A DNA stretch of 63,986 bases, counting the filler, from Reclinomonas americana ATCC 50394 (taxonomy: Eukaryota), in assembly GCA_048213135.1 (NCBI GenBank). It is 8 parts of 8 records of this genome, joined end to end, with 100 filler letters (N's around TTAATTAATTAA, not from the genome) between each part and the next. Parts side by side here need not be neighbours in the genome. Positions count along the whole stretch, not along the records: positions 1 to 11,222 come from AFZH01019986.1; positions 11,323 to 27,708 come from AFZH01019987.1; positions 27,809 to 31,750 come from AFZH01019989.1; positions 31,851 to 35,562 come from AFZH01019990.1; positions 35,663 to 47,633 come from AFZH01019991.1; positions 47,734 to 59,980 come from AFZH01019992.1; positions 60,081 to 62,853 come from AFZH01019993.1; 1 more part is not named here. One strand, given 5' to 3'. Below are positions 497 to 62,853 of the stretch, piece after piece. How positions within the stretch are numbered: position 1 is the first letter of the stretch; each line of letters begins with the position of its first letter. The notes beneath the pieces were generated by a model. It was not told where the DNA came from, searched no databases, and saw only the letters and a program-made list of their open reading frames with translations. The translations under genes were made by a program, and so were the position numbers.

Positions 497-3400
497 TTAC
501 AAACCGTGCTCTGGTGGCGGTTCCTCGTCGCCGTCGTCCTCCTCATCCTCCCCATCGTCGTCGTCGTCGTTCAAATCGAACCCGGCGGCAGCCGTGGTGG
601 CTGGCCGCCGTTTCGCGGCCTCCTGCTCCGCGGCTCCCTGCCGTGCGCCAGTGGCAGACACGGAGGGACGACGCGCCTGCGTGGACGGCGTGGTGGCGCG
701 TCCCGACGGTTGTCGTGACAGCTGCAGGTCGGACGAGCTGGCGACCGAGGCCGTACGTTGGAGCGACGATGCCGTTGGCCGTGCCGCGTGCGGCGCAGGA
801 GGCGGCGGCGGCGCGGCTGGTCTGGGTGGTGGTTGTGGTGCAGGAGGCGTCGGTTTGGCCGGTTGCCGAGTGAATTTCCGAGCGACCTTGCCACCGGCAG
901 CCGTCTCCCGACTCGGAGGCCGCCGCTGTGATGGCTGCATGGCAGATGCTGGCGGTGGGGGAGGCACGGTCGTGGTGGTGGTGGTCGTCGTCACGGATGG
1001 CGGCGACAGCAGTGGCTGGCGGGCCGAGGGCGATCTCGCAGTGTCCGGCGACGAAGGTGACTCAGGCAGCAGATCGGCACCGTATCGCTCTGTTGGTGGC
1101 TCGGCGTTGCGGAAGGTGCCAATGTCGGTAGCAGTAAGTGGTGCCGCCGCCGTGCCGGGACGCGAGGTCGGGAAGCTCGAACGATTGGTGAACGAGCCGT
1201 CGCGCATGGAGGTATGTGGATTGCGGTCGGTGCGCATGCCATGCTCATCCTCCGCCTCCTCCATGAGCATTTCGGGGTGCGTGACTTCCACAATACGCTG
1301 TGCGCGTGATGAGTCGGAAAGGGTGAGCGAGTAAGTGCGAGGGCGACAGAAACGGGGAGTGCGCCCACCTTCCAGTTCTGGGAGATGAGACGGGCTTTTG
1401 TTCGTCTCTCCAACTCGGCAGTCTCCGCCGTATTCTCTGTGTGTGACAGCAATGCCACTTCTGCGGCATGACGACGAGCAGCTGCACTCGAGCAACACAG
1501 CCGTAGATGAACAGCAGTGCGCGTTTGCAGCAGTGTGCCACGGCATGCACTCACCGATCTGTGCCTGCAGTCGTGCATTCAGCAGCAGCTCGCGTACTTG
1601 ATACTGATCCTCGTCGCCCGTCAGACGAAGCTGCACACTGGCGTCGACGTCGCGCAGGGCCGGTGGCTCTGGCACGTCATCAAACGCCACTTCCTCCTCG
1701 AATGTGAGCTCACTGCGCTTGTCTGCGGATCTGGCCGACACGTGGGAGCGAGCCGAGCGCTGTCCTGGTGGCACCGCTGTGCCCAGGGAAGCTGTGCATG
1801 TCGATTGAGTGAGATTCACGTGGCTCTCTCTCTGTGTGTAAAAAGGACTACTCAACTGTGCACGTAATCCAGCTCGTCCTGCATGTGCGTGCGTGTGTGA
1901 GTGGCAAGGCAGAAGCAACAGCAGCAACCACATGATCGACTGTGCAGTACAGACCTTTTTCACATACAGCCGCGCCCGAGCCGCGAATCCAGCCGAGATG
2001 AGGTGGGCCAGCAGATAAACAAAGAGCAACAAAACAATAATGTACACGAGAGCCACAATCCACCAGCGCTCGCAGGGACCGCCAGCGGGACCCATGTAGC
2101 CTGCAGATAGGATACACGCAAGCTGTGAGAATACTGCAGGGTGCCATGGTGACCATCAAGCGTCTCACCAAAATTGCACTGGCACAACGAGCGGGAGATA
2201 CCGGCAGCCTGTTCCGAACCAGTATTCTGCGGACAGCTGGTGCACACACGGGCGCCATATATCTCCGAGTACGAATCACGCGGACACTCGTTGCAGAACT
2301 TGGCCGTGCCCTGCATCTCTCACTTCTCTTGAGGAGGGAACAAGCGCGGAGTATCGCGCACACTCGTGACACGAAACATTGGATCGGAATCCGGGCGGGC
2401 ACGGATCACAGTTGACCGTGCCAAAGTACTGTGCGTACAGACCAGCAGCGCACGCCAGGCAGATGGGCGCCGCTGGGGTGCTCATGTTGTAGCCAGGCGG
2501 ACACAGCTTGCAGCTCGGCATGCCGATCTCGTCCTGGTAGTGGCCGGGCGGACACTTGCGGCATTTCCTAAACGGGTACGAGTGAGCGATTTTTGCAAGC
2601 AAGCAGTGAGCAACGCATTGACGCAACGTCGACAGTGTGTTGGGTTGGTAGTAGCCCTTGGGGCACTTGGTGCATGTGGTGGCGGTGAGACTCTCGGCAA
2701 CAGTGCCCTTGGGACAGCCGAGACACGGCGATGTGTACTTGACAATGATGTATCCGGCAGGGCAGCCTGCAAGTGCACCGCTTACGTGTGATGCATCCGC
2801 TGACTCTCTCCACTCTACAACTGCACGCAACTGCAGGAAATGGTCGGATTGGTTGAATTGTAAGAGTTCACGGGGCAGTCAAAGTCATTGCCAGTCACAT
2901 CGACTGTGTAGCTGACATCGGCGAAGAACGCAGGCACGTCGTCCTCGAAACGATTGCGTGACAGATTTCTGGCACACCACCCACCATACGTGAGTCAAAT
3001 GCAACATGTCGGCAGTGGCACAGCAGCAGCACGCAACAGATACGTCAGCTGCTTCAGTTGGCCAATCTCGTTCGGAATAAGACCGGTGAAATCATTGTCG
3101 GAGAGATCACTGCGTCCATGACTGCTGTTAGTTGCCTAAAAAGACAGCGACAACCGCATCAATACAACGCACAGGTACCACAGCGGAACGATGGAACCGA
3201 TGGACTTCGGAACACTGCCACGCATCGAGTTATTGCGACAGTCCCTGATTGGAGCGACACAATATCAGTGGCTCAATGACGATATGGTTGCAGTGCAATA
3301 TTCACGTGCACGCTCACCACCAACGGAGACGACGCAGGACTGCTAAATCGGTTGGCAACTCGCCTTCGATTGGATTGCGGGCGGTGTTGCTACAGAGTGC

Positions 3401-6400
3401 GAAGCGTGAGAGGCCTCATTTGGAGAGAGAGAATAGTGAACGGTGCGCAACAGATAGACGACTTGATCGAATGCAGAGCTGAAGGCTCGACTGGATACCG
3501 CATGCCGCAAACCACGGGCGCGCTCTGCTGTTCCAAATGACGCTGAGCGCGCTTCAAACCGCGGATCTGATTCACCGCCACCATGATCGTCCGACACTGC
3601 CGGCGGCGCAGTCGCCGATTTGGTCTTCTTGGTCGAGCCGGAGAGCAAGTCGAGTTTGTTGCCGGCCACATTTCTGCTCGCACTTATGAGTGCCCAACCA
3701 GAAGCATAGACGGAGGGGCATCCTCGGCGCAACATGTACAATGCTCCGCGCAGATTGCTGTACTGCGGAAACTCGCCCGTCAAGGCGTTGTTTTGCAAGT
3801 CACTGTGTGCATGAGAGAAGAGTGAATGGCTGGCGACAACCAACCTCCTACCAAGCTTGCTGACGCACAGATACAGCATCTTGGGGGCGGCGACGGCTGG
3901 TAGTTGACCCGTGAACCCGAGACCAGGAGCAGAGCTGCCAGGTGCAACATGAATTTGCATGAATGAAGAAGGGACGAGGGCGAGCGACATCACAGTGGCG
4001 CAACAATTCCACAAGCGAAGGAGACACAATGTTGGTGATGCCACCAGTGACCTTGATCTTCGACATTACTCTGTACGAAAAGTCAGTGCACACCAGGGTA
4101 CAAGGGAAGATGCTCGCAAAAAACGAAACAAGTGCGCCAAGCTCGTCAGGCTTTGAAAGGCTGCCGGCAGTCCAGTATTCATCTTTGGCATGTTGTTCAA
4201 CAGTCTGCAGAGGTGAATTGTCTCCAAACAATGAGTATTACGGGAGACAGGAGCTGTGCTCCTGACTCGCAACGCAACAGCACACGCAGTGACCGGAGTG
4301 AACTGATTTCCGCAGGAAATGAACCGCTCAGTTGCGTCGACGACGGGTTCCTGTGTGCAGAGGTGGTGTGTGTATCGGCAAGGAACACCATCGTGTGTGC
4401 TCGCAAAGCAGTACTCACCAGTAGCGCAGGCGAGTAAACATCTTCACTGCTGGATTGATTGCACCATCCATGGACGAGCTTTGCATGTGCCTGGTCACTA
4501 GCATGTGAGTTGCAAGCAATGTGCAGCAGGGAATAGGGGAGAGAATCACGCAACAGCTCGATCAGCGAGGTAAGATTCTGCCACGGCTTGAAGTTGCCAG
4601 TGAGCGACAGGCCGCTGACGTCGAGATACTCGAGGCCCGACGACACGTCAATGGGAAACATGGCACCTCGCAACCGTGTGCCTCCAATGTCACTGAGGGC
4701 GGACTGTAAGTATGTGTGTCGTCAACACTGAGCACGCATCGGCAGCACGCAACAAGTGCTCCAGTTTGCGGAACTGCGACAGCACTGGTGAAAAGGATGT
4801 GTCACGCAGGCCGACCAGATCGCTGCGTATCGTGGGTGAGTGGAGTGGCAGCGTGGTTGGATGGGGAGAGGAGGACAAGCGCAACATGTAAGTGAGGCCC
4901 ACAGCCGACTCGAGCTGCGTGATGGAGGCCAGAGGATTGTTGCGCAAGTCCCTGTGCGCACACTCACGTGTTAGTTGCAGAATGACAATCACTCTCGCGC
5001 GTGAGCGCACGCAACAGTTCCACCAAGCTGCCGGCACGTCCGGCCTGCACAAACGACGTGATTTTGTTGTTCTTCAACAGGAAAAACTGCAGCGAGCTGC
5101 CGACTGGTGACATGTCCGGCAGGTCGCCGGCTAAGGAGTTGTCGCTGACATCGCTGTGTCGAGGGAAGTGAGAAAGGAGACAGTTGTGAGCGCACACACT
5201 CTCCTGGCTCTCACGCAACAGGTGACGAATGAACGGGACATTGGCCAAACTGGGGAAGTTGCCGGAGAAAGAGTTGCTGCAAGCCACACTGTAAAAAACA
5301 GAAAGTTGGTCCGGTGCAAGAAAGGGGAGCTCGATTCGTCACCGACGAAACATCATAGTGCATGACACTGGCAGCGCAGCTGAGGTGATGGAACCAGAGA
5401 ATTGGTTATCGTGAATGAGTCTGCATTGGACAAAACAGATGAGGCAGGGTGGGGTCAATGAGGAGGCTGGAGCACTGCGCACAGAGTTTGCAGCTGATCG
5501 AGTGCTGACAACGATGGCATCGCGCCCGACAACTGGTTCTCGTGGAGGGTTCTGCGAGTGCGTATCAGTGAAGCATGGGGGAATACAAATAATCAACAAC
5601 AGTGAATGAATGAGTGGAAGCACTCAACAATGTTTTCAGTCCAAGCAGGCGTCGAATGGTGGTTGGCAGGGATCCACTGAAGCGGTTCTTGCCGAGTCCT
5701 CTGTGCGCGCAACACGTTTAGCATCACGATGGCGTCAAGCGCTGCCACAGAAGCCAGTTCACTCACAGGTACTGGATGCTGAGAACGGTTCGTAATGGAA
5801 ACGTTGGCAGTCCGCCACTCAGCGCATTTGCCTCGAGATATCTGCTCAGTAGCAGTGGTGAGTTGATGATGCGCGAGTATGTGCGTGTGTGAGTGCAACG
5901 CAACAGATTGGCAACACTTTTAAACGACAACACTTCGACAGGGAAACCTCCAGTGAACCGATTGCGAGTGATGGCACTGTGCGAAGAGAGGGGAGTGAGA
6001 ATTCACAACGACGGGGCGACAACCACACAAAACGCAACAGTTCACGCAAATCCGGACTTGTTGCAAACGACGGCAGAGCACTGGTCAGCATGTTGCCCAC
6101 GGCGCGGCTGTGCCACCGCCAGAAGTGAGGCAAATCAGTGAATGATTGGCACTGTACAGTGAGTGCTACATGACGCAACAAAATGCGCAAGCTCGGATGC
6201 TGGAACGTCTTGTCGCGCTCCCATGTGATTGCGCCCACAAAGTCATTGTGCGACAGGTCGCTGTGCAAGTGGAGGGTGAGGGCGGAAAGGGCGACCGAGT
6301 GATGGAGAATAGACGCCGACTCAACATGTACATAGCCGCATTGAGGTTGCTCAAGTCGGGCACGACGCCAGTAAGGCGATTGTAGGCCACACTCCTGTGA

Positions 6401-9400
6401 CAAGCGATTAGGTTCTTCTCCCGAACCCTCCGCACGTGCACCAAGGGAACGAAACAAGAAGCGAACGAGTCTGAGCTGCCCGAGGGCTGCGGGCATTGAT
6501 CCACTGAAGAGATTGCGCTCGAAGTTTCTGCGAACACCCTCAACGTCAACACAACACTCTCTGTCGGGATGCGGTGCCGACAACGCAACATATGAACGGA
6601 ATTGATGTTGTATGTTGTGGGCAAGGTGCCGGTGAACTTGTTATACCGCAATGATCTGCAACAATAAAAAGCAATATGAGATGGGAGACAGAGAGGAAAC
6701 TAGCTGCTGCAGTGGCGGAACGCAACATGTATTCGATTCGCCCAAGCGAAGATGGCAGGGTGCCACTTATAAAGTTGGCATCCAAGTCACTGCGTGCAGA
6801 GTGTTGTGAGAGACGAGTGGAGTGTTCTAATCTCCTCGGCAGCACGCAACACGTAGATGAGTGCCGGCAGCGCCCAAAATGCTAGCGCTGGTGCCACTGT
6901 GAGCTGATTGAAGCGTGCATCTCTGTAGATGTACAGAGTGAGTGCATGCGCATGTGTGCATTGCTGTAGCAGCATGTTCATGCGCAACAAATACGTCAGT
7001 TGTGTCCACGTGCTCATATCCGGTAAGCCGCCGGTGAAGGAGTTTAGCGACACGTCGCTGCAGCGGGCACCACCACTCGAAAATGAGTACCCTCCTTCAC
7101 CACAAGAGTGCCATGACGAATTCAGCACGACGCAACAGTGCCCGCATTTTGGTCAACGAGCTCATGGATGAAGGTAACGCACCAGTCAGTCCGGTATTGC
7201 TCACATTGCTGTGGCAAAGCACAAAAAAGTGTGGTGAGAGGGGAGGGCAATGGCACGACTCGCCACCTCCCATATGCTGCGCAACAGATACTGCAATGCG
7301 GCCAGTTGACCAATGGCACTCGGCAGTGTTGTGGCCGGGTGAGTGCCACCGAGTGGACTTTCAATCAACTTGATCTGTTCGAGAGACAACACCTCCAGCT
7401 TTTGCAAACGCGACCATTGCACACTGAAGTAACTGGATAGGCCAGTGCGCGACACGTTGCTGACGTATGACCGACCACCCATCGAATGAAGAAGTGAAAA
7501 TGGAGGAAGCGGACTGAGGGAAGCATGCGTACGCAACACGAATTTGAGTGACAGCGAGTTGTAGATCTGAACTGGGATGTCGCCGGTGATGAGCGGGTTG
7601 CCGCCGAGTTTTCTGTGATTGGTGGCGCGGTGAGCAGCAGTGTGGTGAGGTGAGCAAGGCGACAGTGGTTCACACGCGCACAGATACTCAATCGTCTGCG
7701 ATCCGGGATAGTCGTTGATGAGACCGGAAAAACTGTTCTCCGACAAGTCTCTGCACGGAAACATTGATCAGCACATACAGAGGTCCCTCTCTACTCCTCA
7801 AGTGGAGAGACGTGCACTCAACATATGCGTCAGCAGGGGGATGCGAAACAGCAGGCCCGGTATTTTGCCAGTGAGTCGATTGCGTTGCAGTTTTCTGTGC
7901 CACTCGCCAGTAAGAATGCATGTGCATGACCAGCAGCACTCACGCCTTCGCGCAACAGCACGAGGAGGTCCGGCAGTTTGGTGTACAACCACACGGGCAC
8001 GGTGTCGACAAACTGATTCCAGCTCAAATCTCTGCGCTCAAACGAGTGATCATGAGGCTGGCGCGATGAGGGCGACAACGCGCGAGATGCACGCAACAAG
8101 TACTGCAGTGTGGTGATGTTCTGTAAGGCCGGTGGCAGAGGTCCGCTCAGTCGATTGCGACCCAAGTCTCTGCAGTTGCGTGCGCGGTGAGTTGTTTGTG
8201 AGAGAAAACTGGAGCTCGTCACAGCGGACTGACGCACAGGTACTCCAGTTGTATTCCGATCTGCTGAAAGAAGATGGGCTTGATGTAGGACGTAGGCGTG
8301 GAGCCGACCATCTTGATGGAGGAGGTGAAAGAGTTGCCACCCAGAGCTCTGCGTTCGTGATCGAGTGTGAGTGGCAGCCGCGAGCGATGTTTGGTGAGGT
8401 GAGCGCACGCAACAAATGCGTGAGATTCACGGCTGGTTTCACTCCCGCCGTCAACTCGCCCGACAGGAGGTTGTTGGAGAGGTCACTGTGCGAGTTGGAA
8501 AAGTAAGCAGCAAATAGAGAGAGATGCGGAGGAGAAGGTCTGTGAACGCAACATGTGGTTGCAAAACTCGTATATCTGGTAAGGCACGTCACCGTAAAAG
8601 AGGTTGTCGCGCAAGTTGCTGCGTGAGATACATGATGCCTCGGTGAGGTACTGTGTGTCAAGCGTGGGTGGGATGAACGAAACAGTCGAATGAGGCCATT
8701 CATGTCGCGCAGTGCATTGGGTAACCGGCAGTCAATGTTGTTGTCCGGCAGGTCTCTGCGTCGTCGGTGGCACGAGTGAGGTGACGTGACGTGAGGGAAA
8801 CGGACTGGCCATGACGCAACAGGTGAGTGACAAAGCCAGTCTTGTTGCATGTGACGCCCTCCCACTGGCATGGTTTCTGCACACAGACGTTCAGTGATCT
8901 CGAAGTAGAGAGCGAGAGAGAGTCTTCGTGCTCATACCCTGCCAACTTGCATCCACCCATTGTGTCGTTTCCATCGATCACCGCGACAGTTGATGTACAT
9001 GTCCTGCAGCAAGTTACCTGCATGCCGTCGTCAATAGAATGCACGTGACGTCTCCAAGAAACCCGCAGGAAGCAACGCAACAATCGTAGTCACGGATGCC
9101 CTTGTTGGGGTCGACGCAGATGAAAGCCGAGACGCGCAAATCCACCGTGATCTCGAAACTGGCGCCCGTGTGGCCATACATGCCCACAATGTGACGGCCG
9201 GTGGCGTGGTACGGATCGTCGTTCAACACGATCAGTTGCTCGCAGCCGTACGCGCGTGACTTGAAGCGACACTTGGTCTGATTGACGCACGCCGTCGGGT
9301 GCATCACATTCGCGACGGTCTCCACCTCGGGGAACGCGTCGACCATGATGTAGATGTCGGGGTCGCCGTACAGGCCGGCGTTGGTGGTGCCGTTGCACCT

Positions 9401-9748: not shown

Positions 9749-9787
<39 letters not shown>

Positions 9788-10628: not shown

Positions 10629-11420
10629 ATGGAGGAGGAGTACGTGGAGAACTTCCAGTCGCGAGTGGTGGCATGTCTGACTCGATTTCGTTTGAGAAAT
10701 CAAGGTCAGCGCGTTTCCCGCTCACAGTCACTCTCACAGTCACTCACTCTCTTCCACTCATGCACACAGACTCCTCACGAAGACGAGCGACTGTTGATCG
10801 GTCAGCACTGCACTTCTCTCTCTTTCCTCTCTCACACACTCTCTTATCAATCATGTGATTTGCAGTCAATCGCTTGTTCAAGAACTGGAGGACTTGGTGG
10901 ATGGGCTTGCGGATGCGTGCGAGGTGGCGAACTTTGTGCGACGAGTGGTGGATACGGGCGAGTTGTTGGTGCGACATAAGGTGAGTGGAGGGGAAGGGGG
11001 AGATGCAAGATCAGTTGGTTATGCAGAGAGGGAGGGAGGGAGGGAGGGAGGGAGAGAGAGAGAGAGAGAGAGGAGGAGAGAGAGAGAGAGAGAGAGAGAG
11101 TAGAGAGAGAGAGAGAGAGAGAGAGAGACGAGAGAGAGAGAAGAAGACGAGAGAGAGAGACGTAGAGACGAAGAACGTAAGACGAACGAACACGACGAAC
11201 GTACGTACGACGTAGTACGTACNNNNNNNNNNNNNNNNNNNNNNNNNNNNNNNNNNNNNNNNNNNNTTAATTAATTAANNNNNNNNNNNNNNNNNNNNNN
11301 NNNNNNNNNNNNNNNNNNNNNNAACCGTAGGTAACGTAACGTAACGAACGGTAACGAAACGACGTAACGAACGTACGTACGTACGTACGTACGTACGTAC
11401 GTACGTACGTACGTACGTAC

Positions 11421-11468
<48 letters not shown>

Positions 11469-12034: not shown

Positions 12035-15000
12035 AGGAATCGATTTCCTGGATCACCACACTCAGTGTGTTTGATGCACCTCTCCCTCCCTCTCCCCCTC
12101 CCTCCCTCCCTCCCTCCCTCTCCCCCCCCCTCCCTCTCCCTCATCTTCGCTCATCTTCACACCCACCAGCAACACGTACTGGCCAACGTTGTGTGCTTTG
12201 AGCGTCTGCAAAAATTTAGCGGCGACCACGAAGCCGAGCTGGAGCGCGTGCTGGGCGCCGACGAAGCGCAAGCGCTGCGTGTGCGCCAGCGCATGGGATG
12301 GAACTATTGTGCCGTGTATCAGCTGCTCGACAAGGACCCCACTGTTTCGTCTCCTCTTCTTCCACACTCTCATTCTCCTCCCCCCCACCAATCACTTATA
12401 TGCGCACAACATCGAGTAGTTGGGATCCGATCAGAGCCTCCAGCACACCGTGGAGCACCTCACCGCCATTCGCGTCGACATGGACCGCATTCGACACGAG
12501 CACCACTACTTTATCGTCTCCAACGGCGCCATGTATCTGTACGATGTGTCGCGAGTGCTCATGGAGTGCGATCTGGCGCAGCAGGCGGTTCCGTTTCTCG
12601 CCTACGCCATTGCGTCGTGTGAGGCGCACCTGGTGTTGTTGGCCGACAGATTTCTGCCGTGGCGCAACGAGTTGTACATGACCCTGGCTCGCTGCTACGC
12701 CAAGATGAATGTGCACAGTGAGGCACTGGTTCGTATGCGCGTGTGTGCTGCGCGCGCGCCCTTCCTCCCCCCCAACAAATCTCGCGCGTCTCCCAGAAAT
12801 GCATCGATCGAGCACTCGCGCAGCTGCAGATGGTGCTGTCGCTGGAGCAGGCCGACGAGGTGCCGCCGACAGCCGACGTGTTGCAGACATTCAACAATCA
12901 GCGCTCGCTGCTGCGCCAGTACCGCTTGCGATTAGCATTCTGGGCGCCCTCGGAACCCGTCAAGAATCCACAGACGCTGGCCAACGATCTGAAGGCCACG
13001 ATCGTGGACAGCACATGCTCACTTGGCTCGGCCTGTCTTGCGCTGCTGCAGGGACTGGAGTCGTTTTGTGTTGTGCCACGTCAGCTCGAGACGGAGCATC
13101 CGCCGACCGTGCGTGAGCGGTTGACGAATGCTGTGCAAGCGATTGCCGCCGTGGTCTGTCTTCACACGCTTGTCCCCGTACATTTTCGTGTTTCTCATAC
13201 CTGTTGCCGATCTCGCAGTTTAACGAGAGTGTGGAAGGACTGAAAAAGGCTCGTGCCGCTCCACCGTCGGAAGGTAAACGCACACGCGGCTTCTCATTTT
13301 TGTCGAGTCGTCGCTCACTCACGAGCTTCGATTTCGCACAGAGGCGGAGGCTGCTGCACGCGCTGCGTATTCTTCGCTTCCGCTGGATGTGCATGTGGCG
13401 CTGTTGGTGGCGGCAAATGCGAGTCGTCAGGAGGAACTGTTTGCGGTGCTGGAGAATCCGTGTCTTGTTCGACTGGCCGATGGTTATTTGCGTGGTGACG
13501 GCGGTGATTCCACTCGGTGTAGAAATTAAACTCACGGGATGTGCGGTGCAGGAACGGAGCCTGTGTTGGAACGACTCGCCTACCTCGTCTCGTTGTCGCA
13601 TCGCGTAGGTGGATTTACACTGCGTGGTCCGCTCGGTGACGGTGCGATGTGTGCCCTCTCCGTTTCATCGCCGTACCCTGCAATATCTTACTACTTTGTC
13701 GCATCGCCACAGATCAAGCGCACGAGCTGGCCACCACTTGCGAGGCCATCTACGACGCTATGTCGTCGGCCACCAAGGACGACGTCTTTGTGCAGGCCTA
13801 CTCGCATGTGATTGATGAGTTGGCGTCGCAGTTCTGGGAGACCGGCAAGGCGCTGCTGAAGGTCATTGAGATGGAGGCTGGTCGATACGCTGGTGTGTAT
13901 TTGTGTGTGTGTCGATGTTGGCGATCGTTGAGCGCAAGTGATTCACTAGTGGATCAGTGGTGTCCGACATGCCTGCACACGGTGCCTGTGTGTGCTTGCT
14001 GCGCGCGGCCGTGGAGGGACTCAGCGCCTCGCTGCGTCTGGACCCCGAACTCATCTCGGTGGTGTCGCTGCAACTCGCGTTCCTGTTGGAGGAGCGTGGT
14101 GATTTCAAGCAAGCGCTGTCGGTGCGTGACTTGTTGTTGTTATTTTGCGGGAATTGGCGTGACAGCACTCCAACCCTCGCTCGTCCCACGCAGGCCGTGT
14201 CCACGGCTCGAGCTGTCGTTGATGATTATCGTGACCGCTTCTCGCAACGCATGGGCGAGCAGTGCACGCAAAACGTGTCCACTGTCACTGCGCTGCCGTC
14301 GCTTCAACCGAAGTATCGTGAACTGTTGCGTATCTTGCGAAGTGACAATGCAAGCAAAGATGAACGCAGCAACTCACTCTTCCAATTGCGCAGGTACACA
14401 CCGCTCACGGGCACAGGACTGGCGCAGAATATTGCGTGTCTGCACGCTGATTTGTGGATCAACTCGTTCCGCTTGGAGCTGGTGCGCGTGTTGACGATAT
14501 TAACATCGTTCCTCTTCCCCGTTCTCTTATCATTGATGTGATCCGCGTCTCGCAGAAACAAGGACTGGCGGAGTTGCGTCAACAGCATCAGCGACGCGTC
14601 GCGGAGAAGATGGCGCAACCGGATGCCACTCGCAAGATTCCGTACGAGACCAAGGCGCACCTGTCAGAGCAGGCAGTGTCGCCACCAACTGTACCGACCC
14701 AAGTTGCGTGCGCAAGAAAAAGAGTGCATTATGTGAACTATGGTATTGACCATGCGTGCAGACCGAGGTCCGGCTGGAGCAAGAGCACGCCAACAATCCG
14801 TACGTGCTGTCGCTGTTGTACCTGGAGATGGCCAAGTACCGCGTACAAGGCGAGGCGCAAGCTCAGTTGCTGCAAAAGGCGGTGGCCGCGATTGCGCGTG
14901 CGGAGGCGGAGGAAGCTGAAGTATTCGAGCGTTGCGTGGCCTCCGACGCTGACCGCGCGTCATGCCTCACGTATTTGCTGATTCCACCTCACAGTGACCC

Positions 15001-27693: not shown

Positions 27694-27865
27694 TGTGTGT
27701 GTGTGTGTNNNNNNNNNNNNNNNNNNNNNNNNNNNNNNNNNNNNNNNNNNNNTTAATTAATTAANNNNNNNNNNNNNNNNNNNNNNNNNNNNNNNNNNNN
27801 NNNNNNNNAGTATGGACGGAGTAGAGAAGAGTAGAGAGAGAGAGAGAGAGAGAGAAGACTGCGAC

Positions 27866-29611: not shown

Positions 29612-29651
<40 letters not shown>

Positions 29652-40978: not shown

Positions 40979-41026
40979 GCACTTGTAACAGAAATGAATG
41001 AAGAAGGGAGGAAGGACGAGGACAAC

Positions 41027-48339: not shown

Positions 48340-50559
48340 ATGTTTCGTCGCCTTGGCGGGCAGGTCAGTCGCCTCCTCCCTGTGTACATCTGCACCCTGC
48401 ACACTACACACACGCAGCTGCATTTCCGCTGCGCGCGCGCGTGTGTGTGCAGTTGCTGTTTGTGCGCCATTTCGCGACTGACTTCTGTGTGTGTCTTTGT
48501 GTGCGTGTGTGTGCAGCTGCTGCGCCGGCCACTGTCGGCCATTGCAGCGTCGCCGTCGTCCACGCCACTGCGTGCGTCGGTGACCGAGCTGACCACGCTG
48601 CCGAGTGGTGCGTTGTGTGTGTATGTGATGGCGCGCACATGCGCGCATGGTTCTCTCGCTCTCTCTTCCTCCCTCCCTGCCTTCCCATCTTCTCTCTTCT
48701 CATACACGCACGCGTACATGCTCTCCCCTTTCCCCTCATCCTCCTCTCTGCACAACATGCATGTTTTTCACTCACTCAACGTGCATGCATGATGATGATT
48801 ATGATTATGATGATGCAGGCTTGCGTGTGGCATCGGAGACGCTGCCTGGAGAGACTGCCACTGTGGGCATCTACATCAATGCGGGTTCTCGCTTTGAGTC
48901 GGCAGCCAACAATGGCACCGCGCACTTCCTCGAGCACCTCACCTTCAAGGTCTGCACACGATCGCCAAGACACAACTCGTGTGAGGTGATTCGAGTCTCA
49001 CGTGTGACTCGTTGTTAGGGAACGCCGTCGCTGTCGCAGCGTGACCTGGAGCTGAGCTTTGAGGACATGGGTGGTCACCTCAATGCCTACACGAGCCGTG
49101 AGCAGACCGTGTACTTTGCCAAGGTCCGCGCGCAGCTTGCGGAGAGATGCGGCATCTTTTTTGGTCTCACGCCCCCTGTTCGCAGGTCTTCAAGCGCGAC
49201 GTGGGCCGCGCAGTGCAGATCCTCGGTGATATCCTGCAGAACTCGAAGCTCGAGGAGGTCTGTCGGGAGTGTTTGCTGGCGCTGCAACGCGATGCAACAG
49301 AATGCTGACGTACAATAATGATAATGCGACAGACTGCAATCGAGAATGAGCGTGGAACGATCCTGCGCGAGCAGCAGGAGGTGGAGAGCATTATGGAGGA
49401 GGTGTTGTTTGATCAGTTGCACGCCACGGCGTATCAGACTTCCAGCTTGGGTCGCACCATTTTGGGCCCGGCTGAGAACATCAAGTCGATCCGCCGCGAA
49501 GACCTGACCAACTACGTGCAGACTCACTACACTGCTCCTCGGTGAATACCTCCGTCGGCACTCTCCTCCTCTCCTCTCTCTCCACACCCAAGTGGCGAAG
49601 CGTGCTGACCACCCTCTCTTTAAATGCAGTATCGTGCTGGCCGGCGCCGGTGCGGTGAATCACGCGGAGCTGGTGGATTTGGCCAACAAGCATCTGAGCA
49701 AGTTCAAGTCGGCTGCTGACTCGACGCCGCTGGAGAAGCTGCGCGAGCCCGCTGTCTACGTGGGCTCTGATGTTGCGTCCTCGTCGTCATGGTGGTGGTG
49801 GTGGTGGTGAGAGTGCAGCTGTCGATTGACCCGAAAAACAAACAAAAAAAACAGGTGCGCATCGAGGCCGACATTCCGTTGGTGCACGTGGCTGTCGCAG
49901 TCGAGGGACCCGGCTGGACGTCACCCGACCTGATGACCTTTATTGTGATGCAAACCATGCTGGGCTCGTGGAACCGCACGTCGATTGGTGGCAAGCACCT
50001 GTCGTCGCGCATGTGCCAGTCGATTGCGCAGCAAAATCTGGCGCACTCCGTGACCACCTTCAACTCGCCGTACGCGGACACTGGCCTCTTTGGTGTGTAC
50101 GCCACGGCCGAGGAGGGTCGCTTGGATGACCTGTTGTACGAGATTCAGAGCGAGTGGGTCCGTCTGTGCCACGAGGTGCCGGCGGTTGAGCTGGCTCGCG
50201 CCAAGACGGCGCTGAAGACTGCCCTGTTGGTGGATCTCGACGGCACCTCTGCGGTGTGCGAGGAGATTGGCCGACAAATGCTGACCTTTGGCCGTCGCAT
50301 CCCGATTACGGAAATTTTTGCCAGCATTGACGCCGTGACGGAGCAGAGCATCATCGAGTTGCGTCGGCGTGGCGGAGCTCGTGTCTTTTTTCCATATTTC
50401 ATTTGGCGGGGGGAGCTAAAGTGTGCCTGTTTGCTGGAACACAGTGCTGGTCAGCGCTACATTTTCGACAAGGATCCAGTCCTGGCCGCGATTGGTCACA
50501 TCAAGTCGCTGCCCGACTACAACAAGATCCGCCGCTGGACCTACTGGCTGCGAAGCTAA
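48340..50559 (+). CDS. PMPCB: Mitochondrial-processing peptidase beta subunit (M16)
   Basis: Arg-rich presequence [15 protein letters not shown], then [33 protein letters not shown] (HxxEH), [42 protein letters not shown]. Confidence 0.95.
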
Positions 50560-51832: not shown

Positions 51833-54800
51833 TCAGCCCACACCCCACAAGAACATGTCGCCGTGGCGATCGCCGGCAGCCAGCTCCGTGAGATCCGGAC
51901 TGTGTACGCGTATCGCATGTTTTAGTTCTTGATGTGACGGCGACAAGGCAGCGCAGACGCAACGAGAATGCCAGTGCAGTTACTGGTGCGGTGGTGAGAC
52001 GCGGCATGTCCACCAACGGCCGCAGGTCCCACGACGAGTACAACAGCACCTCGCCTCGCTCGGTTCCCACGGCCACCACATTGCGGTGCACACCTTCGGT
52101 GCCGTGACTGAATATGAGCGCGGTGACACTGTGCACGCCGTGTGTCAGCATCGGCGAGCGCCAGCAGCACTCGAGAAAAAAGAGGACATACCGACTCATC
52201 ACGCTCTGTTGACCCACACGTTCGCCATTGATGCTCCACAGCTCCACGTTCGACGCCTCATCTTCGCTGCTGATGCTAGCCGTCACAATGTCGCCCTGCA
52301 TTTTTCTCGCCGACGTGAGCCAACCACAACTCACATTTCTCTGCATGCCCCAGACACACACATCGCTGACAAACCGAGGTCTCCGAGAGCGCCACACAAA
52401 CGACAGTGTCACCGGCCACACGAAGCGTGCGAATGTACTGCAACCGAGTGAGGTCCCACACGATGACGGTGCCGTCGACCGAGCCGCTGACGATGAGATG
52501 GTACTCCTCGCTGACCACCACGCTCGTCACCGGGCCGTCGTGGCCAGTGAGCACGTCCAAAGCCACAAAGCAGCCAGTCAGACTGCTGTTCGATGGCGAA
52601 GATGCTTGCATGGCTGCGGTCGTGCGCAGCCGCCACACACGCACTGCACATGCGTGGTGAGTGGAAGGAGCACCCACACGCAACGAAACAGGGAATAAGT
52701 GGACGCACCCGACCCACGGGAACTGCCGGTGGCCATCCATCGGCCACTGGACGATACGTGGCAGCAGCGCACTTCTTCGGAGCGCGGAAGCGAGACGCGG
52801 CACACGACGCGCGACTTGTCGGTCGAGCAGAGGCGAATGGCGTTGTCCCAGTAGTGGTAGCTGCGGCAGAACCGTCGTCAGCATAGCGATCAACAAGCAA
52901 CTCGACGCACGACGAGAACAACGCACGCGAGGTAGTACTTGTAGAGCGGCGGTACGGGGATGGTGAATTGTGGAAGTGCAGTTGGCGACGAATTGTACAC
53001 AATGCTGCCGATGGGCACATCCAACTCGTTCGGCAGCGTGGACTGGCGGAAGAGACGAGCGGTACCGGTGACTGGAAACACACATCCGGGAATGAGTGGT
53101 CTTCATACCGGGGAAGACGAAAGCACGCGTGTACATACCGACACTCTCATCGAGAGGGAGTGCCACATGACGCGACGGCAGCGACTGGCGACCGGGGACG
53201 ACGGCAAAGTGTGCCAGCTCCAGCAGCGTCGTCAGTGCTGCGCGCTTCAGGTCGGCGCGTGCAGGATGCGGATTGCCAAAGAGCTGACGCGGTGTCTGAC
53301 CAAACAGATCGATCTGGGTAATGATGCTCTGTGTTCACCGCGCGCGGTGAGTGACCGGATCAAGATGGACGAAACAAACATACACGAGTGCACAGGTGAC
53401 GGCAGTGAATACGCAACAGCTTTGCGCACAGGATCGTCAATCTTGTCAACGTCGACGCCACCCTCGTACGTGTAGGGATGGAACACATTCATGGCCTCCA
53501 CGGCCTTGGGCCCCTGCATTCGGTGTGAGCAAGAGGGGCACACATAGAGTGATGTGGAACATCTGGCGGTGACGCAACTTGCTGCTTGCTGCCAAAGATC
53601 AAGTCGATCCAGTGATGCAGGTTGCGCGACACCGGTGCCGACTCGAGTGCCTCGCGATGCAAACGCACGTAGGTGCGCGCGCTGTTCCACCCACATTCAG
53701 GCAGCCAGCACGCGACTCGAGAGAGCATTAAAAGCTCACGCAACTTGTCTTGCGCCCACACCGGCAGTTCCACGTTGCTGACAGGCGCGCCCGTGCTCTC
53801 GGTGCCGAGATTTACCCCGTTGGCGTTGACAAACATCTCTGGCAGGCAATAAAATTCGGGAATGAGTTCCTTGACTTGCCTGCCGACAGCTGCCGAGGTG
53901 AGCCACGACGCGGCCACCGAGCGGAATGTGCGGTCGTCGAAGCGCTTGTTGAACCAGAGATAGAATGACGTGTACGGTTCCACGCGCACTGTGCACACAG
54001 TGAGTTGAAGGAGGAGAGGCGGGAGTGCGCGTCGCCGACAAACAAGCACGCACCAAGATAGCCGAGTACAATGCCACGCGTGGAGTAATGACTGCCGTAG
54101 TGGAAGGGATGCAACAAATCGAGTTCCTTGCTCTCCTCAAAGCACTCCTGCGCACGCACGCACACACAATTGCAGTGAGTGTGGCGGCGCCCGCGCTGGC
54201 AATAGAGCACGGAAAACAAGACACGGACCTGAAAGACGGCGACACGAGATGGATGTTGTGTGCCCATGGGTTTGCAGAGGTTGCGCAGGTTGCTGAGCTG
54301 CGAGGTGTCGAGCTCCGGAGAACCGTGGTCGGCCACAATGTGTGGAAACACGGGATACTGGCACAGATCGTTGAACGAGCGACCGGCGAGAGTGTTGAGC
54401 ACCATGAGGTACTCGAAGTTGCTCACGGAGCCCTCCTGCTCACGGTCGTCGTCAGCTTCTCTCCACAGAGAAAGAGAGAGAGAGAGGTTGGGAGAAGAGA
54501 GACACGCGCACGCACCTTCCACCGCTGATGGATACTCTTGGTCCAGAACGTGCCTTGCGCCTCGGCTTCGTAATCCACCAGATCGGGACAGTCCATGGCC
54601 TTGACCAACGCCGACACCGATTTCCTGTTCGCACGTACGCAGCGTCAGTGGGAAGCACAAACACACTCAGACACACATGCGCGCGCTGGACACACCTTGC
54701 TCGTTCCTCGGCAAATGCGAAAAAGTACGCCTTGCCACCCATGAGGTAGATCTCAAGACCGGTGTTGCGCAACAAATGTCTGCGCCACAGCGTGAGTCAC

Positions 54801-57800: not shown

Positions 57801-60800
57801 TCGCGTTGTCCGAGTTCGAGCGCTTCAGCTTGCTGCGTTTCTTTCTCCGCTTCGACGACTTGCGCTCTTGCGAGATTGAGCTGCGACCGCCGTCGTCCTC
57901 TGCTCGCGCACACCCCACAAATGAGTGCGCAGGCGGACACAAGAATATCTCTCCACCACTTACACACCGTCAGTGGAAATGTGTTCCACCGCATGCACGG
58001 CAGCCAGCGGTCCCGAACCCGACGTGTCGCCCAGGTTCTCGAAGAGCAACAAGAACTCGGCAGGCGACAGCGGCACACGCCGCAGGTGCCAGGCAAGTTG
58101 CGCAAACCCATTCATCGCAGTGAACTTGGCCGAGAGCGGTGGCACCGACAGGAATCGATCGAGGATCTGCAAGTACACGTAGCGCATGCACGAGTTCGGG
58201 TTCTCGAGGAAGCGCAGCAGTTTGGAGAACGGCAAGATCTCGCCCTCGAGCATCTGCAGTGACTCGCGCCACTCGGGCGAGGAGATTTTCGCTGCACAGC
58301 CAGCACATTGAGATATGCAGAAAGCACACAAATAATCTCTCGGCATGGAGAAAACCACACGCACCGCGCAGCAACGTGGCCGTGGCCAGACCAACAGTGA
58401 GACATTGCGACACGGCGCCGCGCCAGTCGACACCCGATCGCAGTGCGTTGAATACCGCTGTGCGCAACGTTTTAAGATGCGTCGCGAAAGAGGTAATATG
58501 CAACAAATAGATGATACCTTGATGTGCAAATCGCGACGACTCGGTCTCAGACGATAGGCTGTGGAGGCAACTGCGTCAGATCCGTGGAATGGCACGAAAA
58601 CAGAAAATCGCGAAACAACATGCACGCAACAGCGAGTGGAGGGTGGTGAGAAATTGCACCAGCGGACGAGCATCGTCGACGTGCTCCACCAGCGGCTCAA
58701 TCACCATGCCAGCCTGCGGGACCAGTGACTGCGGCAACGCATGTCCCAGCGGAGTCGCGAATTCTCTGGACCGAGCACGATGCGCAGACGGATGTGGTGT
58801 CGCAGGTGCACCATCGGCAGCAGCCGTCGACGGCGTAGCGCCAGTGCCACCATTGACGTGCGGTACAGGCTGTGCAGTCAAAAAAATGAGAACTTACCGA
58901 CGACGGGCGCGAATAGTGTGCACACCACAACAACACACCTCGGCTTGCGACGGTCCACCGCGCTCGAATCGCGCTCGCTCAATCTCGCCAAAGGCCAACA
59001 TCAGCAGATTCAAAAAGTCACCCTCCCGGCACACGCGTCGAATGTCGGCGGCGTGTGCATGCTGCAGCCGGCGATAGCAGCACAAGTCAACATCACGAAC
59101 GATATTCTCTCGCAAAAACACACATACAGACACACGAAACATCAGTCAGCAAGTAGCGCAGGCACGCCAGCCACTGCGCCACCACATCGCTCGACGCCGA
59201 GCTCCACAGTCTGTAGTCGAGGAGCAGTATCCGCAGGCCGTCTGCGTCGCACAGCCGCCCATCCACCAACCAGCACGCCGATTGTGCCGTGCGCCCGTGT
59301 CCTGCACAACGACCATGAGCAACAACAACAACGAAAACACACAACAAAGAGGATACGCACCGCTCTGCTGCAGCGAGTATGCGTCGGGCTCCGCGCGTTG
59401 GAATTCAGCCTCCAGCGAGCGCGAGGTGGCTCCCAAGTACGACCGATCCAGTGACAGCAGCTGGTCCTCCTCGAAACCAACAAAGCGGAACGCAACACGC
59501 AACGCGGCAGCCGACAGGCAAAAGCTCGACCGTCGCAAGTGCAAATTGAGCCAGTCGAAGCCGTTCATGGTGCGGAACTCGACGTCACACATGGGCGAGA
59601 ATCGCACCAACGTGTACAGCAGATCGAGACAGTGCAGCTGCAAGTCGGGTTCGTCAACGCGCGCCAACAGCGCGAGAATCACTGGCGTGCCTCCCACGTG
59701 AGTCCACGTGCTCGCAATGCACGAGCGCTCCCCAGACACAATCTGCAACGTGAAAACCCACAGGTTGGTCAGTTGAGCTCCTCAAACAAAGAAACGTACC
59801 AAAGCCAACAACTTCGTCACTCACCTTGCCGCCGTGCATGGCAGGGACAGCGAAGAAATGCACATTCTGGAACGAGGCATTGGTGGAGACAGGCGACACC
59901 GGTGACGTCGCCGCTGAAGACGACGACAGAGCTGACATGGAGCCGGAGGAGGAGCCGGTCGAGTTGGACTTGTTGGTCAGNNNNNNNNNNNNNNNNNNNN
60001 NNNNNNNNNNNNNNNNNNNNNNNNTTAATTAATTAANNNNNNNNNNNNNNNNNNNNNNNNNNNNNNNNNNNNNNNNNNNNCCACCACCACCACCACCACC
60101 ACCTCCGCCGATACCACCGCCGGTGGTGGAGGTCAGCACCAGCGGAGTGTACGGTAATAGCTCGCGATAACAGGATGGAGCGTTGAACTCAGCCGCGTGT
60201 GCCGACAGCACGAGCGTACTGATCAAATCCGCAGGTAGTCTTGGTGCATGCAGCAACCGCAAATACTCCTTCAAGTCACGCGTCTGCACATCCAGTGCCA
60301 TGCACGAAACCAGTAATGACAAGACCAATGACCGCACGCACGCAAGAGGCGTATGAGGCGAGCCAGCCGGCATCACATTCCGCCGTAATGGAGACGACAG
60401 GGGACTCCTCGCATACGAGCCGGGAGACATGGGCGAATCCAGGTGCGCGAGCAGCATGGGAGACAACAGATCGGCATTGACAGACATGGAGGTGGAAACA
60501 GGAGACAGCGTGGTGGACTGGTCGGAGCGTGGCGTCGCCAGCTGTGGTGGTGCAGTCACGTGACCGTGACACGGCACATAGTGGTCGAAAAAATGTACAA
60601 AATTGGATTCCAGTTCCTCGCTCCTGCACGTTCGTGAGCAACACAATCACACACAGAAGGCGAGCCTCAAAAAAAAAAAGACGAACCACGAAGCGCTGAG
60701 CATCATCGATGCTTCGTCGTCCACTGGAGGCCACAGGTGCCCGCATGTCAGCTCAGGGCTGGCGTCGGCGAGCACCATCGACATTCGATGCAAAAGGCAC

Positions 60801-62853
60801 TGCATGAGATCGCCGCGTCGACACAGGGCGAGCTTGTTGTGCAACGTGTGCTCCATGAGCGCGCTGATGCACCGCAACAGAAACATGCTAAAGATGCACA
60901 TGGTGTCGTACTCGATCGCCGGTCGTTCACCGGCGTTGACTAGCGCCAAGTGCTCCAGAACCACATCCACCGCGTAGACCAGCGCTTCGGGAATCTCCAC
61001 CCGGACAAAGGCGCGCGGCGCGCTGCGACTTGATTCCACTATGCGCGGCAGAGTGCGTGAGTTGGCGAAGGAGAGGTGAGTCGCGAGGTCAAGCAAGTGT
61101 GCGCGCACCTAATGACTCCCGCGCAGAGGGCATGGACGATTTGCTGCGAGGAAGAGAGGGTGGGTAGGTGGACGTGCAAGCAAGATTGGTGCGTTGGCGC
61201 TTCGCACCTGAGATCTTTCGGAAGCAACACACTCAGCCGAAGCATGGAAAAGCACAGGAACAGAGGTCGGCCATACTCGGCAAAAAACGTAAACAGCTTG
61301 CTCAGCTGTGGTCTGAGTGTGCGCACTCCAATTTGCGTGGTGAAGTAACTCTGCGGGGTGCACGGTCGCGATTCATGAGTGGTCGACAGGGAATGCGAAA
61401 AACAGACACGGACGAACGTGATTGCGCTCGTCGTCCTGCATGGCCACGGTCAGCACTGCGAATGCGGCCTCGAGCAGCTCCTCGCAGTGGCGGATGGTCT
61501 GAGGACTCAAAGTGCGACCCTGCGGAAAAGAGAGGAGTTGCATGGGTCTCAGTCGCTGTGCGCCAATGTGGAGAATAGCACAAGCACACGCAACTTGCTC
61601 CTCAATCGCCTGCGTTACCGTGTCAATGAGGACAGGGACGTGAATGAAGCCACCCCCGCTATCGCGGAATTCGGTTCGCATTAGCGAGTTCTGCGTGCAA
61701 TGTTGAGTGCGGGAGTGTTTAGTGCCGTCGCTGCAACTGAACTCACCGATCGGAGGCACATGTACACCACGGAGAGAATGTCACGGCGGAAAACCAGGAC
61801 TCGGTCACTCAGCACCTCCTCGGACGTGCCGCACGTCTGCAGACGGAGTGAGCAGCAATATCAAGCAACCGTGTTTCGTACAAAAACACGACGGACGCAC
61901 CTGCATCTGCTGCAGCAAGTCACACACGACAAAGTATTGTGCGCGGTGGTCGTTCAAGCACATTTCGAAAATGATCTCAAAGCAGTGCGGTCGCACATCG
62001 GCATTCGGCAGCAAGCCGTACAGAGCCGTCAAGCCATCCACATCGTGAAAGTCGTTTCGAAACGCTTCTGCCGTGCGCAGCAGCAGGAGCACGAGGCCGA
62101 GAGTGTTGACCAGCACGCGCTCAAATCCAGCACGCACAGTTTGCGAGGCTGTTGAGGGAGCAGCAACAGAGAGTGAGGGAAGAGTTCGGATAGCATCTGC
62201 CTGCCAAGCAGCCCGACGTACCACCGGCACACATGAAATCAATCAGGGAGAGCAAGTGCAGCCACAGGCCGTGGCGAGCAAAGCCATTCATGAGTGGCGA
62301 GGTCATCGACGGATGCCTCAGCACCGATCGCAAGTACTGCACGATGAGTGCCAGACTGTCTTCACCGCGGTTCAGCAGCAGATCAACCGAAACCGCCTGC
62401 CATCTGCCTCATCCCGAATGCTGAGGTGAGAAACCGTGCCGAGGTGGACGCGACAAAAAGGCATCCCGCACGCAACTGTTGTGACACCACACCAGCATTG
62501 TCCTTGTGCAGCCACTCAAACACCATGAACAGCAGCGACACCAGTTTCTCCTTGGTGTCGACACTGAATCGATCAAAATGGACACACAGCTTGCGCAGCA
62601 CGTCGTACTCGGTGACGCCGCGCAGCGCCTCGACGTGACCATCCTCGCTCAAAAACGCCACAATGAGACGCACCACCGACTCACGCCACCACATATCGTC
62701 GACTCGTTCCACAATCAGAAGCAGCGTCTGCAGTGCGTCCTTGTTGGCGGTCGGCAGTGGCTGCGCCAGTGCCACGATCGACACGTCGAGTGCGAGACCT
62801 ACATCGACGGAGTCAATCACAGGGGATGCGCCGCACGCAGGTGCATCATCGGC
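51833..62853 (-). CDS. BEACH-domain protein (ARM region, PH, BEACH, WD40), LYST/Lvs-like, 5' end missing; spans the gap at 59981-60080
   Basis: RWKLD...RVRVRL; PH GEVVVGELRMYFF...[93 protein letters not shown]; WD40 LTGHDGPVT..IVSGSVDGTVIVWDL. Stop at 51833. Confidence 0.9.

Follow-up and report, generated by a model that had tools for sequence, protein, structure and literature searches.

A shifted 5' splice-site word tied to the last exon base in GT-AG introns of Reclinomonas americana

Introduction

How is a 5' splice site recognized when the exon in front of it does not end in G? The question is raised by a stretch of 63,986 nucleotides (nt) from Reclinomonas americana ATCC 50394 (assembly GCA_048213135.1), which consists of eight contigs joined by filler and is called the window here. 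An initial annotation had claimed that its 5' splice sites (donors) fall into two classes, tied to the last exon base (position -1) and spelling one word one base apart. It had further claimed that the unusual class is a major one, and that it implies either routine alternative pairing registers of the U1 and U6 small nuclear RNAs (snRNAs) or a variant U1. The first two claims are borne out by the present analysis. After an exon-final A, C or T, the intron starts with GTT(G/T)(C/A)G(T/C), mostly GTTGCGT. After an exon-final G, it starts with GT-N-N-G-(T/C), most often GTGCGT. The shifted donors of the GTT(G/T)(C/A)G type are referred to as the S class and the ordinary donors after exon-final G as the G class; a slash marks the exon-intron junction. 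The donor pattern is solid, and a mechanism is inferred from it below.

Two donor words for two kinds of exon end

The introns that carry the argument were placed with our own protein-profile-to-DNA spliced aligner, which accepts GT..AG introns only (other termini are outside its reach) and applies no other splice-site score. With profiles built from 45, 40 and 30 homologues, it yielded 7 introns in a mitochondrial processing peptidase (MPP)-beta-like gene, 16 in the WDR35/IFT121 gene and 11 in the C-terminal part of a BEACH-WD40 gene. In the final homology set of 33 introns, GTTGCG is found at 9/9 non-G exon ends and at 0/24 G ends (Fisher p = 2.6e-8), and seven of the nine read GTTGCGT in full. 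The G-end donors read GTGCGT, GTGAGT, GTGCGC, GTCTGY, GTCCGY, GTACGT, GTATGT, GTGTGT, GTTTGY and similar words; one that is weakly supported reads G/GTTTCG. The confidence of each junction was expressed as a knock-out cost, the loss of score when the chosen donor is forbidden. This cost is 9.4 to 68 for 29 of the 33 introns; in the final set, each of the four weaker ones (0.5 to 8.3) comes after G. The WDR35 call tgt/GTGATCT at 46114 (45 nt, cost 8.3) was considered doubtful and replaced by a 69-nt alternative, ctg/GTTTGCA at 46138, which two other parses had also chosen. When the original call is kept, the counts become 9/10 versus 0/23 (p = 2.6e-7).

For breadth, a window-wide parse was iterated unsupervised, without a starting motif and with a donor matrix conditioned only on whether the -1 base is G. 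It converged on 156 introns, among which 37 donors after non-G and none after G carry GTTGCG; it makes some errors against the homology set and was used for breadth only. A leucine-rich repeat (LRR) receptor gene was parsed separately and without regard to the donor word, by means of codon scores and a bonus wherever a junction restored the LxxLxLxxN repeat. A fourth, codon-only ab initio parse was excluded from all counts because its donors were right in just 4/7 and 10/16 cases (about 60%); this motif-free parse lost all six S-class donors of WDR35 and MPP-beta. The homology set, the LRR parse and the unsupervised parse were combined into a table of 151 introns.

Outside the LRR gene this table holds 106 introns, 80 after G and 26 after non-G. 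The latter comprise 18 GTTGCG donors, 4 further GTT[GT][CA]G donors and 4 doubtful others, and none of the 80 G-end introns begins with GTTGCG. Overall, 50 of the 151 introns belong to the S class, so that the class, as had been claimed, is a major one with 25-33% of introns.

The word itself is enriched as well. GTTGCG occurs 106 times in the window against 62.8 +/- 8.0 expected, a count that none of 100 shuffles reached. Within modelled genes it is found 73 times in the sense and 25 times in the antisense orientation; the sense excess equals the 44 donors, all of which are preceded by non-G. The ordinary word after a non-G base, H/GTGCGY (H for A, C or T), shows no such excess (74 sense, 68 antisense), and is used as donor in 6 cases, all in the LRR gene.

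It could be argued that the pattern is an artefact, either of misplaced junctions or of tandem duplication in the LRR gene alone. Indeed, paralogous introns of the LRR gene make up 28 of the 50 cases, the junctions derive from sequence, and a codon-only parse errs at the rate given above. This explanation is nevertheless very improbable: the nine homology-placed cases lie in three unrelated conserved genes and cost 9.4 to 65 to remove, an error of one base would break the reading frame, and S-class donors are present on 6/8 contigs. The nine include seven donors that the initial annotation had named (49772, 50358, 47260, 46290, 53417, 53578 and 53744). Others that it had named fared less evenly. 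The donors at 14703, 15213 and 61594 were recovered by the unsupervised parse and by no other, and those at 51963, 14122 and 10981 were not reproduced by the models. For CFAP54, which contains 14703 and 15213, the search found no homologues and per-exon Pfam scans anchored one exon only, so its donors stay model-based. The donor at 35897 is plausible in a possible mitochondrial ribosomal protein S6 gene (35814-36226, plus strand) whose first exon ends AA/GTTGCGC; the support is weak, with an E-value of 0.04 for this S6-like exon and an AAG acceptor. The intron of the S6-like gene is unusually long (about 197 nt) and rich in CA/CT repeats, and its apparent end is AAG, not CAG.

The leucine-rich repeat gene

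The LRR gene lies on the minus strand. In 31 of its 45 introns the conserved Leu codon is split as CT/N at the same place in successive repeats, and the last exon base is therefore forced to be T. Evidently the intron was copied together with the repeat unit. The gene has 28 S-class donors (22 GTTGCG, 3 GTTGAGT and 3 GTTTCGT). The shifted word is found at 23 of the 31 CT/N junctions, as GTTGCG (18), GTTGAGT (3) or GTTTCGT (2); six others have strong ordinary donors, and two are ambiguous, namely 6026, which has a GTTGCG alternative, and 5366, where a GTTTCG start was seen by eye. All twelve positions at which the initial annotation had placed shifted donors in this gene carry GTTGCG on the minus strand, and eleven are donors in the donor-blind parse; at the twelfth (6038) the neighbouring GT at 6026 was chosen. 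Its two exceptions with ordinary words, 7681 and 8237, were confirmed, and four more were found at 5766, 5482, 3868 and 3172. While the interiors of the LRR introns have wholly diverged, the heptamer has been kept, which indicates selection on the heptamer.

One word, shifted by one base

The relation between the two words becomes clear when their columns are compared. G-class donors have G at +3 (65%), C at +4 (44%), G at +5 (95%) and T at +6 (65%). S-class donors show a sharper copy of these +3..+6 columns one base downstream: G at +4 (91%), C at +5 (91%), G at +6 (100%) and T at +7 (86%). In RNA letters, positions +3..+7 of the S class read U, G, C, G, U and mirror +2..+6 of the G class. 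The same shift can be observed on the exon side. At -2 of the G class, A is preferred and G is found in 4/80 cases against a background of 0.29 (p = 5e-8). At -1 of the GTT[GT][CA]G donors, A is likewise preferred and G is found in 1/23 (same background, p = 0.004). Deeper exon positions do not separate the registers (log-likelihood -83.8 versus -84.6). It is thus a joint motif, (A)G-[G or T]-T-G-C-G-T, that is cut after its first G in the G class and before it in the S class.

Ordinary introns at old positions

U12-type introns are characterized by the 5' word RTATCCTT and the branch word TCCTTAAC close to the 3' end. Might the S class be a separate intron type, either a diverged U12-like class or an introner that carries its own GTTGCGT end? 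Like that of U12-type introns, its 5' motif is rigid and independent of the exon, and introners with fixed donor words are described in the text on Micromonas by Verhelst et al. 2013 (PMC3879977). In other features the S class resembles the G class. Median intron length is 65 nt in the S and 69 nt in the G class (Mann-Whitney p = 0.97). A branch-like motif (YTNAY test) is present in 46/50 S-class and 73/83 G-class introns, and its median distance to the 3' end is 18-20 nt; the words CTCAC, CTGAC, CTCAT and TTGAC are common to both classes. CAG acceptors are found in 48/50 and 75/83 introns, base composition is alike, and all 33 homology introns are GT..AG introns whose removal restores the reading frame. 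No RTATCCTT-like word was found at the S-class 5' ends, which read GTTGCGT. The S introns, LRR gene included, share no interior similarity beyond that of unrelated introns (mean local score 7.6-7.8 versus 7.9).

The positions of the S introns point in the same direction. Eighteen metagenome loci with WDR35 were fetched, of which ten, none from a close relative, were spliced with the same profile. Of the four S-introns in WDR35, three coincide exactly in position and phase with introns of other eukaryotes: those with donors at 47254..47260 (profile position 116, phase 0) and 47026..47032 (172, phase 1) are shared with locus L018, and the one at 46436..46442 (327, phase 2) with locus L016. The latter (1644-2779) belongs to an unrelated, low-GC eukaryote with WDR35 introns of just 30-37 nt. 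At the shared positions the donors elsewhere are plain (atg/GTAAGG and act/GTAAGT in L018, acg/GTACGT in L016), as are other donors after non-G in these loci (caa/GTGAGT, caa/GTATGT), and no GTTGCGT donor was found in the ten spliced loci. Old introns have therefore been re-tooled with this word in a lineage-specific way. From the shared positions, the likeness of the classes and the unrelated interiors it follows that these are ordinary old U2-type introns and not mobile copies. A separate intron type is largely refuted, and it was shown that two kinds of 5' end exist within ordinary GT-AG (U2-type) introns.

What reads the word

The 5' end of the standard U1 snRNA is ACUUACCU. Real donor contexts were paired with this 11-base end in a duplex model that ignores pseudouridines and the proteins of the small nuclear ribonucleoprotein (snRNP). 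In this model, the G class pairs with a median of -6.8 kcal/mol, with the +1 G on C8 in 82/83 donors. The S class pairs with a median of -0.6 kcal/mol, and the shifted register, with the +1 G on C9, is the best pairing for 6/50 donors; as a class, S donors thus do not pair clearly better in the shifted than in the canonical register. Single words give -1.4 kcal/mol for A/GUUGCGU, -2.8 for A/GUGCGU and -5.0 for the human-type A/GUUAAGU. The shifted word hence pairs no better than A/GUGCGU, yet H/GTGCGY serves as donor in just 6 of its 74 sense occurrences.

These numbers bear first on the simplest reading, in which a single standard U1 serves both classes. GUUGCGU would then pair one base out of register with the help of protein (+1 G on C9, +3 U on A7, +6 G on C4, +7 U on A3), and U6 and U5 would set the cut. 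The evidence for a shifted word fits such sliding equally well, and the 5' end of U1 is almost universally conserved. According to the text of Tan et al. 2016 (PMC4856993), moreover, the shifted register is proven experimentally for human GUUAAGU-type sites. However, in our duplex model GUUAAGU, the precedent that the initial annotation had invoked, shifts well and GUUGCGU does not. At +4/+5, the AA of the human cases can pair with the two pseudouridines; the GC found here cannot. Neither the weak pairing in this register nor the preference for H/GUUGCGU over H/GUGCGU is accounted for, and we regard routine sliding of a standard U1 as rather doubtful.

The pairing may also be bulged rather than shifted. 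U1 and later U6 would pair normally at +1/+2, the extra U at +3 would bulge out, and GCGU would pair as +3..+6. Such a register retains G+1:C8 and U+2:A7, and one-base bulges at +2/+3 were validated in human 5' splice sites, as described in the text of Tan et al. 2016 (PMC4856993). Nevertheless, the predicted energy is as poor as in the shifted register. It would also be unexplained why the extra U is tied to the non-G exon end (outside the LRR gene, 0/80 G-end donors carry GTTGCG), and why the -1 base copies the preferences of -2 in the ordinary class. We therefore consider a bulge improbable.

In a further scan, 64 U1 variants changed at positions 5, 6 and 8 were compared by the share of donors that they set apart from 95% of decoy GT sites. 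For the standard guide, this share is 61% in the G class and 2% in the S class. For guides complementary to GUUGCGU, of the form AUACG[CU]A[AG]CUG, it is 74-82% in the S class and 16-25% in the G class, and none of the 64 variants binds both classes. Because of this lack of a dual-class guide and the weak standard pairing, a variant U1 fits better than routine sliding. Of the two possibilities the initial annotation had left side by side, it is thus the variant U1 that gains from the modelling, and the pairing numbers speak for a changed U1, for a second U1 or for a different kind of reader.

Such a reader could be a sequence-specific protein or the later U6/U5 step, with introns that are independent of U1 or nearly so. 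The rigid heptamer and its poor pairing with standard U1 agree with this, and U1-independent U2-type splicing has been reported (cited in the text of Tan et al. 2016, PMC4856993). Against it stands the likeness of the word to the ordinary donor word one base away, which suggests a shared reader, and no candidate factor is known. On balance, a reader other than U1 seems unlikely.

The reading that we prefer is that of one motif guided by a changed or second U1, with the cut set apart from the register of the guide; we assign it a probability of roughly one half. The splice site would be read as a single motif whose register is fixed and whose anchors are G, U, G and U. In the S class, the first intron G would occupy the place that is normally held by the last exon G. 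The catalytic core would then cut 5' of the sole GU present, so that, measured against the guide, the cut would lie one base further upstream than usual. In all registers the predicted binding of standard U1 to GUUGCGU is very weak; the most likely guide would therefore be a U1 whose 5' end has changed or a second variant of U1 that is complementary to GUUGCGU. A variant of this kind would place A or G opposite the +2 U and have G-C complements at +4/+5, and would act beside the standard U1 for the G class. Selection would keep the heptamer rigid because S sites lack the exon G. A more far-reaching version, which we put forward tentatively as a less likely possibility, is a dual 5' splice-site code within the major spliceosome: standard U1 would serve the G-end introns, and a second or re-written U1 complementary to GUUGCGU all non-G-end introns, a quarter to a third of the total, the ancient ones included.

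Several points weigh against the one-motif reading. All junctions derive from homology, repeat structure or a coding model, and the unbiased set is small (33 introns in three genes of one 64-kb window). The counts for the 73 model-based introns are partly circular, because their donor model could depend on the -1 base, and the LRR donors are not independent evidence for the association, because their introns are paralogous. The six T/GTG[CA]G[TC] donors of the LRR gene show that the ordinary register is workable without an exon G. Conversely, the motif alone is insufficient: 24 sense-strand H/GTTGCG words are not donors in the models, and in WDR35 the words at 45329 and 43459 are exonic and unspliced by homology. 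The simplifications of the duplex model count here too, and the partner RNA is pure inference. To our knowledge, few RNA sequences of eukaryotes are as conserved as the 5' end of U1, and this speaks against an alteration. A search for U1 and U6 genes, as the initial annotation had proposed, revealed no snRNA gene in the window (Rfam at gathering thresholds). At E <= 1, only microRNA-like matches were obtained. These sub-threshold matches, on both strands at 11360-11425 and 29610-29795, are not RNA genes and arise from simple repeats, namely a self-complementary (ACGT)n microsatellite and (GA)n/(TC)n tracts that face each other.

Genes and other features of the window

The window is GC-rich (52-61%) eukaryotic nuclear sequence, and the top identities of its proteins in large libraries are 49-56% over the full length; no near relative is recorded. 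An exact search with 40 bases returned no match in a collection of prokaryote genomes. The coding signal is very strong, with 4-7% A and about 78% G+C at third codon positions (43240-47632 minus, 48568-50554 plus). The eight contigs are joined by seven identical linkers (44 N + TTAATTAATTAA + 44 N), which are flanked by simple repeats: (GA)n, (GT)n, (GGA)n and (CCA)n. The WDR35 gene is interrupted by the linker at 47634, and about 90 N-terminal residues are absent; because of this truncation, neighbouring pieces may be non-adjacent in the genome. In a single-gene tree, WDR35 is placed beside a clade of Percolomonas and Euglenozoa (support of 97 in the SH-like approximate likelihood ratio test, SH-aLRT) on a long branch, which is a hint at most.

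Right after the S donors at 47254-47260, 46284-46290, 9075-9081 and 4268-4278 (all minus strand), a tandem partial copy of the word (GTTGCGTTGC...) is found. Such copies could give alternative donors five bases apart. In the BEACH-WD40 gene, an aligner call of 385 nt (52815-53199, minus strand) was dropped as spurious, as it has an AAG acceptor and lies within an open frame. The frame has 352 codons. The stretch skipped by this call, in the WD40 region, is probably a lineage-specific insertion; it possibly contains two short real introns, placed by the model at 53138 and 52926. Downstream of MPP-beta, a small gene (50836-51719, plus strand) without Pfam match has five short introns, and all five donors follow G (GTTCGT, GTTTGT, GTACGT, GTGCGT, GTCTGG).

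Table 1. Genes, donors and linkers of the window. Donors are written as exon end/intron start; cost, knock-out cost.
Feature	Position	Strand	Details
LRR and ephrin-receptor-like cysteine-rich receptor gene	2311..9081 (2.3-9.4 kb)	-	about 45 introns; donor-blind LRR-guided parse; Pfam (Ephrin_rec_like)
LRR ordinary donors after T	8237 GTGCGT, 7681 GTGCGC, 5766 GTGAGT, 5482 GTGCGC, 3868 GTGCGT, 3172 GTGCGT (3166..8237)	-	junctions restore LxxLxLxxN
CFAP54 gene	12-25 kb	+	Pfam (CFAP54_N)
CFAP54 S donors	12344 act/GTTTCGT, 14703 caa/GTTGCGT, 14931 agc/GTTGCGT, 15213 cca/GTTGCGT (12344..15219)	+	unsupervised parse
Asp/Arg hydroxylase gene			Pfam
M76 peptidase gene			Pfam
S donor gtc/GTTGCGT, contig 4 gene	34864..34870	-	model-based
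TTI1 gene	36.5-40 kb	-	Pfam
S donor caa/GTTGCGC, TTI1	37987 (37981..41596)	-	model-based
S donors act/GTTGCGT, caa/GTTGAGT	41303, 41596 (37981..41596)	-	model-based
WDR35/IFT121 gene	43.2-47.6 kb	-	Pfam
S donor att/GTTGCGT, WDR35	47254..47260	-	62-nt intron, phase 0; homology; cost 23.4
S donor aca/GTTGCGG, WDR35	47026..47032	-	56-nt intron, phase 1; homology; cost 14.7
S donor aga/GTTGCGC, WDR35	46436..46442	-	65-nt intron, phase 2; homology; cost 65.2
S donor acc/GTTGCGT, WDR35	46284..46290	-	66-nt intron, phase 2; homology; cost 15.8
WDR35 ordinary donors (12)	43481..47490	-	all after G; GTGAGT, GTCGGC, GTTTGC, GTTTCG, GTACGT, GTGAGT, GTGCGT, GTGCGC, GTCTGA, GTGCGT, GTGCGT, GTGAGT
WDR35 exonic unspliced GTTGCG words	45329, 43459, 46759, 43818	-	
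M16 peptidase (MPP-beta-like) gene	48.6-50.6 kb	+	Pfam
S donor gat/GTTGCGT, MPP-beta-like	49772..49778	+	83-nt intron, phase 0; homology; cost 18.8
S donor cga/GTTGCGT, MPP-beta-like	50358..50364	+	87-nt intron, phase 2; homology; cost 9.8
MPP-beta-like G-end donors (5)	48608..49629	+	GTGCGT, GTCTGC, GTCCGC, GTCTGT, GTGAAT
BEACH-WD40 gene	51.9-59.9 kb	-	Pfam
S donor caa/GTTGCGT, BEACH-WD40	53738..53744	-	63-nt intron; homology; cost 14.6
S donor caa/GTTGCGT, BEACH-WD40	53572..53578	-	65-nt intron; homology; cost 16.0
S donor gct/GTTGCGT, BEACH-WD40	53411..53417	-	89-nt intron; homology; cost 9.4
S donors, BEACH N-terminal part	59140 gat/GTTTCGT, 58630 gct/GTTGCGT (58624..59140)	-	model-based
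S donors, contig 7	62476 aca/GTTGCGT, 61594 caa/GTTGCGT (61588..62476)	-	model-based
Linkers	11223-11322, 27709-27808, 31751-31850, 35563-35662, 47634-47733, 59981-60080, 62854-62953		

Relation to known systems and significance

Like U12-type introns, the S class has a rigid 5' word, 7-8 bases long and independent of the exon; the word is different, and the S-class branch site and acceptor are ordinary. Human cells are known to contain variant U1 snRNAs, but we know of no large intron class dedicated to them. Two reports (PMC3561869, PMC10870369) offer a precedent for a cell with several U1 species that differ at the 5' end.

The closest parallel is offered by the human shifted-register sites (Roca and Krainer 2009, via the text of Tan et al. 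2016, PMC4856993, and of a review, PMC9311317). Human U1 can pair out of register or with a bulge; it marks the site, and U6 later fixes the cut (PMC4856993, as given in its text). As in the S class, these sites have a U at +3, the consensus lies one base downstream, and the cut falls at the GU with the guide out of register. The S class is set apart by its strict tie to the non-G exon end and by its word, GUUGCGU instead of GUUAAGU, with the much weaker modelled energy given above (-1.4 versus -5.0 kcal/mol for the shifted human word). It also differs in frequency: such sites are exceptional and rare in human genes, where all the validated noncanonical registers, taken together, account for about 1.5% of 201,541 sites in the text of the same study (PMC4856993), whereas 25-33% of introns are concerned here.

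Bulge +2/+3 and asymmetric-loop registers of U1 were reportedly described by Roca et al. in 2012. Like the S class, the sites of this kind covered in the text of Tan et al. 2016 have an extra nucleotide between the GU and the +5G/+6U anchor. They predict no dependence on the -1 base; the S class shows such a dependence.

The ordinary class has its own counterpart. Irimia and Roy are said to have published related work on the donors of Mamiellophyceae in 2008 (PMC2483917). In these algae (Micromonas, Ostreococcus) the donors read AG/GTGCGT, and they resemble the G class here in the favoured G/GTGCGT, the GC-rich genome, the short introns and the strong branch motif, as far as the text of Verhelst et al. 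2013 (PMC3879977) describes them. No GTTGCGT class is mentioned in that text, the logos in its figures and supplement aside. R. americana is not a close relative of these algae, the best protein identities being those given above. Diplonemids, with (G)/GTATG donors and few branch motifs (text of PMC12621601), and the intron-poor Andalucia godoyi (text of PMC7050145) both fail to match the intron pattern found here. A literature search returned no text description of a GTTGCGT donor pattern, logos in figures and supplements being beyond the reach of a text search.

Pending RNA and snRNA data, the S class can be regarded as a form of noncanonical 5' splice-site recognition for which no earlier description was found. 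Gene finders with a single donor matrix will misplace its junctions. The presence of a new word at old positions means that a lineage can re-tool existing donors and not just gain introns. A genome in which 25-33% of introns belong to a class of this kind, under a strict rule set by the last exon base, would provide a natural system for two long-standing questions: by what means the cut site is determined when it does not depend on U1 pairing, and what degree of change the most conserved guide sequence of the spliceosome can tolerate.

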